NCBI GenBank assembly: GCA_965205505.1
Contig: CBDBHB010000009.1
Location: 1,472,001-1,536,000 of the forward strand
Source of the DNA: Acidobacteriota bacterium
Lineage (GTDB): Bacteria; Acidobacteriota; UBA890; WLXD01
Direction of reading: 5' to 3'
Length of the DNA stretch: 64,000 nucleotides
Made by a program: the position numbers and the translations under genes. Shown here piece after piece: positions 42,614 through 60,788 of the stretch. The notes beneath the pieces were generated by a model. That model saw only the letters and a program-made list of their open reading frames with translations. It was not told the origin of the DNA and did no database searches. Within the stretch, counting starts at the first letter, position 1, and each line of letters opens with the position of its first letter.

Positions 42614-42892
42614 CTAGCAGGCCGTGGTGAAAGTGTGGTGGGTCTGGCGACAGGGTCTTGCGAAGTGCAGGCAAGGAGAGAGGAGGAGGCGATGGTTACC
42701 GCATCGTTGACGAGGAACGACGCAGCATACGCGCGCAACCCCCTGTCGCCCGAAGGGTTACGGCGATTTGGGGCCATCTGCAGCGTTGCCCTTCCTCGAC
42801 GATGGCTAGGGCATCGCCTGTGTCAGGCCGCCTTGCATCTGGCCCCAACTCGCCGTAACCAGACCCACTACACTTTCACCATGGCCTGCTAG
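42614..42892 (+). mobile_element. MITE type A, two-module form (279 bp)
   Basis: Same TIR as 39285-39465 (2 mismatches in the right TIR) plus an extra 98-bp hairpin arm at 42761-42858. Confidence 0.9.
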
Positions 42893-42947
42893 GTCGCGGT
42901 TGACGGACCCTCGCCGACTGCGAAGCTCCGGTGCGCGCTAGCGCGCT

Positions 42948-43727
42948 TCAAATGCCCACCAGGTTGGGGCGAAGCTTGCGGTAGCCCTGTTCGCTGGCCC
43001 ACAGATCCAGCGGCAGGGCGACGATCTCGTCGACATCGGCGACGGCGCGCGGATCGGCCACCAGGCTGACGACGTGCAGGTAACGGTTGCAGCTCTCGCA
43101 GGCGCGAACCTGAAGCTGTGCGAGGTCGTCGGTTCCGTACCACGCCAGCCGGCCGTCGTCGGCTTGACTACACGCTGGGCAGCGGACACGAGGGAACGTC
43201 CATTCCGCCAGGCACAGCGAACAGATAAGGCTCAGGGCGGTGCCGTCGCTGCTGGTGCGCAAGCAGCCGACCTGCGGGGCCTGACCGCACCTCGGACAGG
43301 TGTCGACGGAGACGCCGGGGTTGGCGTCGCGGTGCTTGCAACCTGCCGCACCGACGGCTGCCGCCGGGCCCAGCAGCACGCGCGCGAAAAAGCTGCGCGG
43401 CGACTCGATATCGTCGCCGCGCCGGTGCGCCTCGAAGGCGAGCTCGCATTCCGCGGCGTCGAAGCGTCGGGCGGCGTGGCGCAATGGAGCGGGCGCGATC
43501 TGCGCGATCAGCTCCACCAGATCGGACCGGGATTCCGCCGGCGCCGCTGCCGAGACCCGCGCTTGGAATGCGGCGATGTCGGCGTAGAACTCCAGCGCCT
43601 GGCGCGCCGCCGGGTGGGACTCGGCAAGCGCCCGGGCACGGGCCTCGCGGCGCACGCAGAGGGAGCCGAAGTCCGGTTGCTCTGGTGGCGGCGCGGTCAG
43701 CGGAATGTCACTCTGTGGCGGCGGCAC
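42948..43727 (-). CDS. fdhE: Formate dehydrogenase accessory protein FdhE
   Basis: CPRCG, CSLCLAEW, RVRCPAC, ACESCNRYL, LPLDLWA; last gene of the fdh operon. Confidence 0.9.
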   Translation of the reverse strand: MPPPQSDIPLTAPPPEQPDFGSLCVRREARARALAESHPAARQALEFYADIAAFQARVSAAAPAESRSDLVELIAQIAPAPLRHAARRFDAAECELAFEAHRRGDDIESPRSFFARVLLGPAAAVGAAGCKHRDANPGVSVDTCPRCGQAPQVGCLRTSSDGTALSLICSLCLAEWTFPRVRCPACSQADDGRLAWYGTDDLAQLQVRACESCNRYLHVVSLVADPRAVADVDEIVALPLDLWASEQGYRKLRPNLVGI

Positions 43728-43752
43728 GCTGCTTTCGATGTCGGCAGCGCGC

Positions 43753-44379
43753 TCAGCGCCCGGAGATCTTGGCGTACCACTTGGCGTGATGCGAGGCCGC
43801 CCAGTCGGCGCTCACCCAGCCGCGAGTCATGGCGCGGAGGGAGCCAGGGATCGCCGCCACCGCCATGTAGATGTGGACGATGATGCCGCCGATGGCGACG
43901 ATCGCGGCGAGCGGGTGGATCAGCAGGGCAGCGAACGTCAGGCCGCGCGGTGCCGTTCCCGGAAACCACATCACCAGGCCGCTGGTCAGCAACGCAACAG
44001 CCGCCAGCGACTGCGCCCAGAACAGCATCTTCTGCCCGCCGTGGAAGCGGCCCGACTCGGGCATTCCGGCAGCGTCGTTCATGGCGTAGCGATGCGACTG
44101 CCGCAGCCACCTGCGGTCGTCGGCATCGACGCGCATCTGTCGCGCCCAACTCACGAACATCAGGCCGAGCACCGCGGCGAACAGGAGACCGCCCCATGGG
44201 TGCCCCCAGCGCGTCACCTCGCCGCCGCCGAATACCGTCGCCAGCCACAGCAGCTTCGGGCTCCAGAGCGATAGCCCGGTCGCTGTGGCATAGGCGAAGC
44301 TGCCAGCAACTAACCAGTGAACGGCCCGCTCGCGGAACGAGAAACGCTCGATGTGGTCGTGCTGGCGCGGCACGCTCAC
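43753..44379 (-). CDS. fdoI: Formate dehydrogenase gamma subunit (cytochrome b556)
   Basis: RFSFRERAVHW, HPWGG, GRFHGGQK, HIYM, GWVS..WA..HH..W; GTGA overlap with the beta subunit. Confidence 0.9.
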   Translation of the reverse strand: MSVPRQHDHIERFSFRERAVHWLVAGSFAYATATGLSLWSPKLLWLATVFGGGEVTRWGHPWGGLLFAAVLGLMFVSWARQMRVDADDRRWLRQSHRYAMNDAAGMPESGRFHGGQKMLFWAQSLAAVALLTSGLVMWFPGTAPRGLTFAALLIHPLAAIVAIGGIIVHIYMAVAAIPGSLRAMTRGWVSADWAASHHAKWYAKISGR

Positions 44380-58244: not shown

Positions 58245-59450
58245 CTACGAGACCGCGCCGTAGTCCACGTCGATCTGTCGGCGTGAGGCGGCTGATGACA
58301 GCACGGCGTCACACACCACGGCGGCGCGATAACCGTCCACGAAGGTCGCCCCGTGGGGCGTGACATCGCGATCGTTGGCGATGCAGTCGAGCAGGTGAGC
58401 GAACTCGTGTACGAACGTGTGCTCCCAACCGATGATGTGTCCGTGAGGCCACCAGTGTTCCCAGAACGGGTGGTGTGCTTCGGTTACCAGTACATCGTGG
58501 AAGCCCTGCGTCTCGCGAGGCTCGTCGTCGACCCAGAACACCTGGAGCTCGTTGAGGCGTTCGAGGTTGAAGCAGATGCTGCCAAGCTCGCCGTTGATCT
58601 CTACGACCTGGTGATTCTTGCGGCCGGCCGCAAAGCGCGACGATTCGAGCGTTCCCAGAGCTCCGTTGGCGAATTCCACGGTGGCAACGAAGGCATCGTC
58701 GACGTCGACCTTGGCGTTGCCGGAGCCATCCGGCAAGGGCCTTTCGTCGATGAACGTGCGCGTCGCGGCGCCGACGCTGGCAATGTCGCCCACCAGGTAG
58801 TGCGCCAAGTCGATGATGTGCGCGCCCAGGTCGCCCAGTGCTCCGCTACCGGCGTGCTCCTTGTCGAGTCGCCAGATTCTCGGCGTGCCGTAGTGCGGCA
58901 GGATCCACTCCTGAAGGTAGACCGCACGATAGTGGTAGATACGGCCCAGCGCGCCGCTCTCGATCAGCTGGCGAGCCTGGCGTATGGCGGGCACGAAACG
59001 GTAGTTGAACGCCACCATGTGTTTGACGCCCGCGTCGCGTACCGCCGCCAGCATTGTCGCAGCCTCTTCCACGTTGCGGGCCAGGGGTTTTTCGCAGATC
59101 ACGTGCTTGCCGGCAGCGGCGGCGGCGATGCAGGGCTCGGCATGGACGTCGTTGGGTCCACCGTTGTCGAACAATTGCACGCGCTCGTCGTCGATGAGGT
59201 CGCGCCAGTCCGTGTAGTGCCTCGCGTAGCCGTAACGTCGCGCTGCTTCGGCGACGGCGCCCGCGTCGCGGCCGCAGATCGCTACCAACTCGGGTATCGC
59301 CGGTGGCGGGTAGATCATGTAGGGGAGCGTCTTGAGCGCGTTCGAGTGCGCCTTTCCCATGAAGGAGTAGCCGAGCACACCGACACCTATGCTGGGTACG
59401 TCGAGATCGGTCGTTGCCGCCGCCATGTCGGTGAAGGACTGCTCACCCAT
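58245..59450 (-). CDS. Gfo/Idh/MocA NAD-dependent sugar dehydrogenase (levoglucosan dehydrogenase-related)
   Basis: GYSFMGKAHS, CEKP, FNYR, YLQEW, GALGDLGAH, WWPHGHIIGWEHTF. Confidence 0.88.
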   Translation of the reverse strand: MGEQSFTDMAAATTDLDVPSIGVGVLGYSFMGKAHSNALKTLPYMIYPPPAIPELVAICGRDAGAVAEAARRYGYARHYTDWRDLIDDERVQLFDNGGPNDVHAEPCIAAAAAGKHVICEKPLARNVEEAATMLAAVRDAGVKHMVAFNYRFVPAIRQARQLIESGALGRIYHYRAVYLQEWILPHYGTPRIWRLDKEHAGSGALGDLGAHIIDLAHYLVGDIASVGAATRTFIDERPLPDGSGNAKVDVDDAFVATVEFANGALGTLESSRFAAGRKNHQVVEINGELGSICFNLERLNELQVFWVDDEPRETQGFHDVLVTEAHHPFWEHWWPHGHIIGWEHTFVHEFAHLLDCIANDRDVTPHGATFVDGYRAAVVCDAVLSSAASRRQIDVDYGAVS

Positions 59451-59480
59451 CCTTGTGCTCCCTACCTAGGGTAAACCGCA

Positions 59481-60479
59481 TCAGTCGTCGGCGAACGCCG
59501 CGTCGAACGCCACATCCGAGGGTGCGAAGTCCTGGTCGCGAACCATCTGTAGCGCCTCTTGCGCACCCCATTCCCGATCCATGCCGCTGTCTTCCCACTC
59601 GATCGACAAGGGACCGTTGTAGCCGATGCGGTTGAGCGCTCGTACGATTGGATCCCACTCTACGTCGCCACGCCCAGGAGACACGAAATCCCAACCCCGC
59701 CGAGGGTCACCGAAGTCCAAGTGTGACGACAGGATGCTGTTGCGTCCGTCCAACTGCAGCCGAGCGTCCTTCACATGGACGTGGAAGATACGGTCGGGAA
59801 ACTCCTCGATGAAGGTCACCGGCTCGATGAACTGGTGAACCAGATGGCTAGGATCGAAGTTGAACCCGAAGCTGGGGTGGTTGTCGATCGCGTCCAGCGC
59901 GCGCCGCGCCGTGATGGTGTCGTAGGCGATCTCGGTCGGGTGCACCTCGAGCGCGTAGCGCACCCCTTGTTCGGCGAATACACCGAGGACGGGCTGCCAA
60001 CGCTCGGCGAAATCGCTGTATCCAGCGTCGATATCGCCCTGGGTCGTGGGTGGGAAGAAGTAGAGCTTGGACCACACGCTACTGCCGGTGAATCCGTTGA
60101 CCACGTCGACACCGAACCGTCGCGCCGCCCGTGCTGTGTCGGCGATCTCCGCGGCGGCACGTTGCCGGACCCCCTCGGGCTCACCGTCTCCCCAGATACG
60201 GGGCGGCAAGATCCCACGGTGCCGTTCGTCGATCGGATCACACACGCACTGGCCTACCAAGTGGGTGCTGATGGCCGAGCACGACAGTCCGTGGCGCTCG
60301 AGTAGCTCCCGCTTGGCGTCGACGTAGGCGTCGTCGCTGAGCGCCTGGTCAACCTCGAAATGATCACCCCAGCAAGCCAGCTCGAGCCCATCGAAGCCCC
60401 ATTCGGCAGCCTTCGCAGCCAATGTCACCAAAGGCAGGTCAGCCCACTGGCCGGTGAACAGGGTGATCGCTCGTGACAT
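59481..60479 (-). CDS. Xylose isomerase-like TIM-barrel protein (sugar phosphate isomerase/epimerase; possible 3-ketoglycoside eliminase/hydratase)
   Basis: [41 protein letters not shown] aaggag. Confidence 0.85.
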
Positions 60480-60509
60480 CGAGAATCTCCTTTGTGGTGC
60501 CTAGGACGC

Positions 60510-60788
60510 CTAGTGCCCTGTAACAGAGGTTCGTTGCATATTGCTGGGTCGAGATGGGGGCAAGCTCAAGGCGCGATGAGGATGGCGATGCGGTGTCCAT
60601 CGTCGACGAATCGCAACGCTGAGATTGCCCCCATATCGACCCAGCCCTCCGGGTGGCCGCGGGACTGGCCACCTCCGGCGTCGGCTCTCCTCTGCGATAC
60701 GCTCAGCATCGCCGTCGTCGTGCCTCCTTGGATTCAGCTCAGTCGCGCGCGCCACAATATGCAACGAACCTCTGTTACAGGACACTAG
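60510..60788. mobile_element. MITE type B, two-module form (279 bp)
   Basis: 34-bp TIR CTAGTG(C/T)CCTGTAACAGAGGTTCGTTGCATATTG related to 49823-50007; two internal hairpin arms. Confidence 0.9.

Follow-up and report, generated by a model that had tools for sequence, protein, structure and literature searches.

A strand-specific, covarying hairpin module shared by CTAG-flanked miniature transposons with divergent ends in Acidobacteriota and other bacteria

We analyzed a stretch of 64,000 nucleotides from the genome of an Acidobacteriota bacterium (assembly GCA_965205505.1, contig CBDBHB010000009.1, positions 1,472,001 to 1,536,000), referred to here as the window and numbered from its first letter. 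The window contains four complete short elements of 181, 185, 279 and 279 bp, one half element and five remnants, interspersed with unrelated housekeeping genes. All complete elements and the half element have CTAG termini, their ends are of two types, A and B, and each carries one or two copies of a 52-53 nt hairpin module. By kind they are MITEs, i.e., transposable elements of miniature size with inverted repeats; the new part is a core that crosses phyla, is specific for one strand, covaries and outlasts the ends of the elements. The data presented here directly support the anatomy of the elements and the fold of the module, together with its bias to one strand, its fixed spacing, its spread over several phyla and its absence from Rfam. 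The explanation that we favor, with a confidence just short of an even chance, is an old and widespread superfamily of non-autonomous miniature transposons that target TA/CTAG and are built around a conserved single-stranded structure, favored as RNA.

Each element begins with CTAG and a terminal inverted repeat of ~34 nt, continues with one or two inner hairpins and closes with the second repeat and a further CTAG. The arms of the terminal inverted repeats in the four complete window elements measure 34-47 nt and are 83-100% complementary, and the single-stranded folds of these elements beat shuffled sequences with z scores of -11.6 to -13.1. The inner hairpins are ~100 nt long; their arms of ~23 nt vary in sequence by copy and by family and carry the module at the tip. 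In an alignment of 57 modules, helix P1 ends at an invariant C:G pair and often has a tandem G.A pair inside it. Above P1 lies an internal loop in which AAGG faces RACGC, followed by helix P2 with 5 bp, free in sequence and covarying. Next comes a symmetric loop, G-A-x-G-(n)-A facing G-A-y-G-A, where x and y form a Watson-Crick pair with two tandem G.A pairs around it. Helix P3 has 7 bp (GGCGATG with CATCGTC), the second of which is a G.T(U) wobble, and it leads into a terminal loop of ~7 nt with free sequence. The x:y pair is C:G in 29 of the 57 modules, G:C in 16, A:T in 4, G:T in one and something else in the other 7.

A sequence-only reading of the window, made before this analysis, had listed seven copies of the module, and exactly these seven are recovered both by a covariance model (R1) and by a relaxed sequence pattern. 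Run over the whole window with filters off, the model gave the seven modules 40.2-84.9 bits and the next match 14.4 bits. The relaxed pattern, CAAGG-N11/12-GKCGATG-N7-YATCGYNGA, finds all seven window copies and nothing else, and it has no match in 100 shuffles; the module core alone, with one mismatch permitted, marks the same seven places where 0.16 would be expected. Several other particulars of that reading also hold: the two-module elements of types A and B are 279 bp long, with gaps between the modules of 59 and 58 nt respectively; the CAAGG edge lies 57-58 nt from the outer edge of CTAG in all seven copies; and the central x:y pair, C:G in the copies at 42783 and 60678, is G:C in the other five. 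Two of its claims stand only in part. The strict motif that it proposed matches four of the seven copies and nothing in 100 shuffles, but the remaining three copies deviate at one to three fixed positions (GGCAC instead of RACGC at 13555, GTCGATG at 49898 and TATCGCAGA at 60678). The loop of 7 nt, which it regarded as invariant, is indeed ~7 nt long as a rule, but loops of 6 or 8 nt occur in some second modules that were found by the model only.

The window elements (181-279 bp) have no coding capacity as judged by Pfam, in which the overlapping open reading frames (ORFs) gave no match. A coding reading of the module itself was rejected by eye: the difference in length of 11/12 nt puts the frame out of step, P2 shows covariation and the loop varies freely.

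A scan of public genomes with the relaxed pattern yielded at least 100 loci, and the distribution described here is that among the matches listed (loci numbered with the prefix L). A module scoring at least 38.5 bits is present in 60 of the 100 listed loci (82 matches), which come from ~28 assemblies according to a hand count from the record titles; the other 12 matches score 31.6 bits or less, and most of these lie inside conserved protein genes. The module-bearing records are labeled Acidobacteriota, Thermoanaerobaculia, Brocadiaceae, Phycisphaerae, Gemmatimonadota, Chlamydiota, Myxococcota and a proteobacterium, and further gut Clostridia, Lachnospiraceae, Eubacteriaceae and a Bacteroides bin; taxon labels of binned assemblies may be wrong. 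Two size classes, ~165-195 bp and 278-283 bp, are seen in these loci. Locus L052 (1757-2099) has a two-module variant of 343 bp with ~60 extra nt, a small palindrome, between the hairpins. The gut copies have AT-rich ends and arms, which enclose an unchanged GC-rich module; this is expected if the elements have long been resident in AT-rich hosts. One gut-type element of 169 bp (L033, ~1930-2110) is located within an Mrp-type Na+/H+ antiporter operon, between an mrpF-like and an mrpG-like gene and with its module in antisense.

The window copies are 93-99% identical to copies in contigs with non-matching flanks; for the two-module type A element the identity with copies in contigs CAXWPH010000012/14/15 is 93-97%. 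Nine type A copies, from the window (42614-42892) and one other assembly, have only few differences over ~280 positions; apart from the window copy they are found in L004, L029, L039, L043, L054, L070, L091 and L095, and the genes beside them are unrelated housekeeping genes. The differences concentrate in the terminal loops of both modules and at free positions beside RACGC, with the paired and conserved positions constant, a constancy that is partly built in as the copies were gathered by pattern. A comparison of the window flanks with the fetched loci, made in search of empty sites, gave no match. When the two 279-bp elements (types A and B), the gut element of 169 bp and single modules were compared by BLAST with plasmids, phages and E. 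coli genomes, there was no match or there were short chance matches within genes; the three best plasmid places reached at most 16.4 bits with the covariance model, and BLAST found no match to the module in 5,426 E. coli genomes.

The fold of the module is under selection. This claim of the sequence-only reading is well supported by strong covariation in two alignments of pattern-collected modules, assessed against shuffles. For alignment A1, modules without an RACGC-like tail were filtered out beforehand, and 57 of 61 candidate rows were used, each with 14 nt on either side, the four omitted rows being near-identical type A copies. Across 24 pairs, 86.1% of the cells in A1 are paired, and the covariation of 0.474 compares with 0.173 in shuffles (0 of 500 as high); the value drops to 0.08-0.16 when the pairing partners are slid. 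Alignment A3, with 36 less redundant modules, gave 88.2% paired cells and a covariation of 0.500 vs 0.178 in shuffles, again with 0 of 500 as high. Two-sided changes are present in all 10 variable pairs of P1, in all 5 pairs of P2 and in x:y. The inner pairs of P3 never vary, but the search pattern had fixed them, which makes them uninformative either way.

The fold belongs to one strand of the module. The sequence-only reading had suggested as much, and an excess of G.T pairs, the energies of the sense fold and the one-strand score of the model now agree with it. Among the pairs outside P3, 64 cells of the 57-module alignment are G.T and 20 are A.C. The wobble pair of P3 is G.T in 49 modules, G:C in 7 and another combination in one, the search pattern having also permitted G:C; two modules found by the model only have A:T at this position. 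The pair at columns 20/63, beside P2, is C.A in 27 modules, A.G in 23, A.A in 3 and T:A in one, and it is gapped in 3. With RNA parameters the sense fold is more stable than that of the complement in 53 of the 57 modules, by a mean difference of 7.3 kcal/mol; with DNA parameters this is the case in 43 of the 57, by 2.0 kcal/mol. For the module at 42783..42835, the 84.9 bits of the model refer to the sense strand, and the opposite strand scores 11.1 bits. The sense strand always runs 5' to 3' inward from the nearer end of the element, and two-module elements have one sense copy on each strand.

The elements appear to consist of two layers. We paired the left with the right side in 20 one-module elements, using rough alignments in which misalignment adds symmetric noise. 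At the terminal positions 1-36 the mismatches are symmetric, with 29 G.T vs 30 A.C and 14 GA/AG vs 12 CT/TC. The inner arm is biased, with 30 G.T vs 16 A.C and 41 GA/AG vs 5 CT/TC. The symmetry of the outer mismatches indicates that the ends behave as duplex DNA sites and that the single-strand signature is confined to the inner hairpin.

The ends vary far more widely than the distance that separates them from the module. At least ten end types occur in the loci listed, and three of them coexist in contig CAXWPH010000015 (L043, L090 and L042) and also in the window. The fixed distance noted by the sequence-only reading is nevertheless held at 56-58 nt across very different ends and phyla. Of 75 modules with sufficient upstream sequence, 8 have CTAG at 56 nt, 19 at 57, 19 at 58 and one at 51; a further 9 have NTAN (TTAG, CTAA, ATAG or TTAA) at 57-59 nt, and several of the remaining modules have CTGG or CCAG at the same place. 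Older copies (L002, L003, L033, L046, L005 and L028) often show CTGG or CCAG for CTAG, i.e., transitions at the central TA.

Types A and B had been described as sharing no terminal sequence beyond CTAG and nothing but a 52-nt module inside, and neither description is fully supported. A gapped alignment of the first 34 nt, with CTAG counted, matches 23 of 34 positions, compared with 17.5 +/- 2.0 in shuffles, of which 1 in 500 was as high. Between the modules 37 of 53 positions agree, a value that 0 of 500 shuffles attained. The arms have recognizable blocks in common, with agreement at 16 of 24 positions in the 5' arms (29 of 500 shuffles as high) and at 16 of 26 in the 3' arms (131 of 500). 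Across families there are two recurring arm types, one per module type, plus a short central palindrome. The two types are homologous through the whole inner ~100 nt, including the flanking arms, and perhaps weakly at their ends too. From their sequences they look like diverged branches of one superfamily and not like families that each acquired a module; the simplest history would be a single old non-autonomous lineage whose ends diverged fastest.

The CTAG flanks are uninformative on target duplication because they are palindromic. The flanks speak for a TA-centered target. Among the non-palindromic ones, those of L012 and L015 (CTAG...CTAA) and of L042 (TTAG...CTAG) fit a duplication of TA in NTAN, and those of L064 fit one of 4 bp. 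Elements of the IS630 family duplicate TA according to an extract of PMC2170065, and IS630 prefers TA in CTAG according to the title of Tenzen and Ohtsubo 1991 in the reference list of the same paper. Ends of different families abut and share or neighbor a CTAG at three places (window 49805-49826, window 60498-60513 and L091 ~230-250), and this fits repeated insertion into a CTAG that flanks an older copy. Four window ORFs stop in the TAG of a terminal CTAG (1961-1963, 13498-13500, 49824-49826 and 50004-50006), and both convergent ORFs that flank the 185-bp type B element terminate in this way within its terminal CTAGs (ORF ends 49826 and 50004). The ORF at 39449-41125 (-) extends four codons into a terminal repeat before it stops. 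The rare CTAG seems to occur mostly at stop codons in this GC-rich genome, so that insertions cluster at gene ends. In gut-type ends (L027 1945-1960 and 2098-2113, and other loci) CTAG is followed inward by TATAAT, which places a perfect -10 hexamer at the tip.

The sequence-only reading had assumed that the mobilizing enzyme is not encoded in the window, and Pfam scans of 191 window ORFs (57 + 134) indeed gave none. The scans were extended to ORFs around modules in other loci (79, 10, 128 and 50, together 267), and neither set contained a DDE, Y1 or serine transposase. The only recombinase was a XerC/D-like integrase ~350 nt from the element in L045 (1 of 27 loci), which we take as coincidence. 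A motif pre-filter for HUH enzymes, applied to 1,265 ORFs, left four candidates; three of them (in L033, in L058 and at 12910-13578 of the window) have no Pfam match. The fourth, at 54187-55443 of the window, matches only PSD3 (DUF1587) in Pfam. An autonomous relative with the same ends was found neither in the window nor in the 60 loci.

We propose that the two layers would work as follows. The outer layer, i.e., the ~34-nt terminal inverted repeats with the TA-centered CTAG, would act as double-stranded DNA; it differs by family, presumably tracking the transposase that acts in trans on each family. This transposase would most likely be a cut-and-paste DDE enzyme of the IS630/Tc1-mariner kind, which would duplicate the TA within CTAG. 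One or two hairpins of ~100 nt make up the inner layer, which is selected as a folded single strand of defined polarity. Transcription through the element would give a hairpin RNA, and a protein or small ligand would recognize it as its conserved partner. The two-module form would provide a sense copy for either direction of transcription and the one-module form for a single direction. We infer in this scheme the class of the transposase, RNA rather than DNA as the folded strand, and the existence of the partner.

Several observations lead us to favor RNA. Conserved internal-loop bases between covarying helices, G.U pairs and tandem G.A pairs have the look of RNA motifs that bind proteins or ligands, and the module shows features typical of such motifs in its wobble, its tandem G.A pairs and its C.A/A.G switch. 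The energy gap between sense and antisense is much larger with RNA parameters. The ends resemble ordinary duplex transposase sites, so that a single-stranded DNA stage is not required. Finally, the two-module form offers a sense copy whichever direction is transcribed.

A number of results weigh against this interpretation. With no transposase or autonomous element among the 191 window and 267 locus ORFs in Pfam, the class of the enzyme is a guess. The flanks of L064 (TTAG...TTAG) fit a 4-bp duplication, as reported for IS701-family elements in an extract of PMC2266710, better than a TA duplication. The modules were gathered by a sequence pattern, so conservation at the pattern positions is partly built in and the evidence from covariation rests on positions outside the pattern. 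Scans for promoter and terminator consensus sequences in or beside the elements gave nothing above chance. In a hand tally of 12 one-module elements with co-directional, Pfam-supported neighbors, 4 have the module in sense and 8 in antisense orientation; this lack of a sense-orientation bias argues against a role via co-transcription with host genes. The fixed spacing of 56-58 nt would be explained more naturally by a DNA complex of end and hairpin. Moreover, G.T and tandem G.A pairs are stable in DNA hairpins too, and DNA parameters also favor the sense strand.

The strongest competing explanation is one that we consider possible but less probable than the RNA: the hairpin may be a DNA structure that acts in cis during movement, as a single-strand hairpin or a cruciform arm, and may be bound together with the end of the element by the enzyme or a host factor. 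The spacing is kept over ten or more types of ends, and the module always has the same polarity with respect to the nearer end. The orientation relative to host genes, in the tally given above, looks random. The module, both arm types and the center are conserved along non-autonomous lineages, which points to a role in propagation, and the preference of the DNA parameters for the sense strand in 43 of the 57 modules suits a DNA fold. In its stronger form, this explanation invokes a Y1 (HUH) transposase of the RAYT/TIRYT kind, and the element would be a large REPIN-like hairpin with a CTAG tag at its foot. Extracts of PMC3733652 provide precedents: RAYTs bind and cleave single-stranded REP hairpins, which need mismatches, and Acidobacteria have a distinct group of Y1 genes that are flanked by long terminal repeats and accompanied by genomic repeat families.

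The sequence-only reading had leaned toward such a HUH/RAYT enzyme, and our results give this no positive support. No Y1 gene was found among the 191 window and 267 locus ORFs, the elements have no GTAG tag, and none of the 5 window elements has the motif GGGGWSAS on either of its strands. Y1 transposase genes that are flanked by such repeats are usually single-copy. The outer 36 nt are without strand bias, as expected of the sites of a double-stranded transposase. The flanks TTAG...TTAG of L064 resemble a target duplication, and Y1 enzymes are not known to make target duplications. The modules of two-module elements lie on opposite strands, while ends of the IS200/IS605 type are as a rule read on a single strand. 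The more economical guess is a cut-and-paste DDE enzyme, with a Y1 enzyme as the less likely candidate, because the outer repeats lack a strand bias, the TA-centered CTAG flanks are a known target of IS630 and there is no positive evidence for Y1.

It is rather improbable that the module is a relic, functional only in an autonomous parent (for instance as a regulatory hairpin in a transposase leader) and passive in the miniature elements. Internal deletions in insertion sequences are regarded as the origin of miniature elements (extract of PMC11602168), a fixed distance to the end would then copy the layout of the parent, and the hand tally shows no preference for an orientation on the host side. 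However, the two-hairpin architecture, with two arm types, a central palindrome and 278-283 bp, recurs with different ends and is unlikely to result from many independent deletions; the GC-rich module is intact in the AT-rich gut elements, and no parent was present in any locus scanned. Least probable is the reading of the CGATG-N7-CATCG core as a double-stranded operator to which a dimeric protein binds, with the hairpin as a by-product of its palindromy: the inner five pairs of P3 never vary while the spacer of the half-sites does, as would be the case in an operator, but P1 and P2 covary while their sequences change freely, the asymmetry of GGCGATG / CATCGTC is retained in 49 of the 57 modules and purine-purine mismatches are found on one strand only (41 vs 5), and covariation, asymmetry and one-strand mismatches, being irrelevant to duplex DNA, count against the operator.

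The RNA reading can be carried further, though with distinctly lower confidence. The module may be an uncatalogued, universally readable, portable, aptamer-like domain of RNA (or single-stranded DNA) that travels as cargo of miniature transposons and recruits a conserved partner, cellular or encoded by an element; the hairpin and not the repeats would then be the unit of selection, which we regard as conceivable and on balance doubtful. It is as tentative a suggestion that the lineages kept the hairpin for a very long time while they swapped their ends to exploit different transposases. Equally speculative is an adaptation of the two-module form to work in either direction, or on either strand, of reading.

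The module maps to no described family in Rfam 15. At the gathering score the window gave only SECIS_3, which lies elsewhere in the window, and no relevant family was seen in 16 loci at E<=1 or, for the region around 42500-43000, at E<=10. Weak matches to miRNA-like families reflect the long hairpin only, and known ribozymes and riboswitches were rejected, as Rfam holds them and gave no match. No description of the module was found in the literature searched; the supplementary MITE catalogue of PMC11602168 lay outside this literature and may name the elements differently.

Among the systems already described, the MITEs of the IS630/Tc1-mariner type, such as ERIC/IRU and Nezha, are similar in that they are short, non-coding, bounded by terminal inverted repeats, inserted at a TA-centered target, dispersed between genes and able to form long hairpins. 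ERIC/IRU is listed as MITEEc1_IS630 (PMC11602168), and Nezha and the Correia/NEMIS elements of Neisseria are named in PMC3733652; IS630/Tc1-mariner-type MITEs are reported there to act on neighboring transcripts as RNA. The elements described here differ from the IS630/Tc1-mariner MITEs in that, as judged from the module in 5,426 E. coli genomes, they have no sequence match to them, their interior is more conserved than their ends across phyla and they have defined non-canonical pairs.

Correia/NEMIS elements are inverted-repeat miniature elements at TA, with two size classes that differ by an internal block and with long RNA hairpins. The inverted repeats at TA sites, the two discrete size classes and the long hairpins are thus common to both; unlike our elements, Correia/NEMIS are known from one genus only, and their interior is not known to be a covarying, strand-specific motif shared across families. 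The REP/REPIN-RAYT systems also have hairpin repeats, a conserved tetranucleotide at the foot and paired inverted units. REP units are 20-40 nt long with a GTAG or CGTC tag (extract of PMC3733652), whereas our elements have 165-283 nt, hairpins of ~100 nt and a palindromic CTAG that is 56-58 nt from the module. Some TIRtron/TIRYT families share GGGGWSAS in their terminal repeats, according to the same extract (PMC3733652); they differ in this from the five window elements and, as far as the ORFs scanned are concerned, in the Y1 gene. Rickettsia palindromic elements are described in that source as lying in-frame inside genes and as having a CGTC tag (PMC3733652). They are comparable as palindromic repeats at coding regions, given that four ORFs here use a terminal CTAG for their stop; unlike them, our elements are located between genes and have long terminal repeats.

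The features of the window are collected in Table 1; the remnants and the mini element are additions to the copies given by the sequence-only reading. The half element at 13497 and the remnant at 15650, which are in inverted orientation, look like one type A element that was split by ~2.0 kb through an insertion or rearrangement and lost its second hairpin. Between the two pieces (13497-15698) are genes for a 1-Cys peroxiredoxin, a YbaK-like editing domain and a SnoaL-like protein. The solo end at 49805-49826 beside the element at 49823 is, as judged from their arrangement, a nested insertion. For the mini element of 38 bp at 1960-1997, an internal deletion and a scar left by excision are both conceivable origins.

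Table 1. Elements, modules and remnants in the window (R1, score with the covariance model).
Feature	Position	Strand	Description
Type A element, two modules	42614..42892		279 bp, CTAG both ends; ~34-nt terminal inverted repeats around two hairpin arms; repeat I4; fold -172.4 kcal/mol, z -11.6
Module M1 of type A two-module element	42672..42723	+	x:y = G:C, N11 form; R1 60.8 bits over 42657-42737
Module M2 of type A two-module element	42783..42835	-	x:y = C:G, N12 form; R1 84.9 bits
Type B element, two modules	60510..60788		279 bp, CTAG both ends; repeat I11; fold -165.2 kcal/mol, z -12.0
Module M1 of type B two-module element	60567..60619	+	R1 84.4 bits
Module M2 of type B two-module element	60678..60730	-	x:y = C:G; stem 3' half = TATCGCA; R1 59.4 bits
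Type A element, one module	39285..39465	-	181 bp; repeat I10, 34-nt arms 100% complementary; fold z -12.0
Module of 181-bp type A element	39356-39407	-	R1 60 bits
Type B element, one module	49823..50007	-	185 bp; repeat I8; fold z -13.1
Module of 185-bp type B element	49898-49950	-	R1 76.8 bits
Half type A element (left 139 nt: terminal repeat, arm, module, arm)	13497..13635	+	Repeat D1, 86% identity with 42614-42752
Module of half type A element	13555-13606	+	R1 40.2 bits
Type A right-end remnant	15650..15698	-	Repeat I9, 35 nt, 97% complementary to 13496-13530
Type A left-end remnant	12879..12905	+	~12-nt internal deletion; exact 16-nt end match
Solo type A terminal repeat	31438..31465	-	Repeats D5, I20, I21
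Solo terminal repeat, third end type (as in L042, L064)	49805..49826	-	CTAG in common with left end of 185-bp type B element
Mini element without hairpin module	1960..1997		38 bp; type B ends, CTAG both sides; repeats D9, I15

The SECIS_3 element of the window is located at 47557-47615 (-) and has a score of 69.8 bits (gathering score 63). At this place two minus-strand ORFs adjoin, 47613-48263 and 45183-47609, which have the Fe4S4 and molybdopterin domains of a formate-dehydrogenase-like enzyme. From this arrangement the two ORFs are probably one gene that is read through an in-frame UGA.

MITEs are usually defined by their ends and have drifting interiors. The elements described here invert this rule: the ends diverge until they are hard to recognize, and the hairpin inside is constant between soil Acidobacteriota and gut Clostridia. 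The conservation of its non-canonical pairs, of its polarity and of its spacing to the end implies a conserved partner and a function that serves the spread or retention of the element. There is a fair chance that the core is a new recognition motif of RNA or DNA. Since the elements supply stop codons and occupy promoters and operons, they have an effect on how genes are called and annotated in metagenome-assembled genomes. Should the hairpin act as DNA, it would point to a single-strand or cruciform recognition step in a class of transposons that is thought to use only duplex ends. If it acts as RNA, it would be a new and widespread bacterial RNA motif that moves between genomes on transposons.

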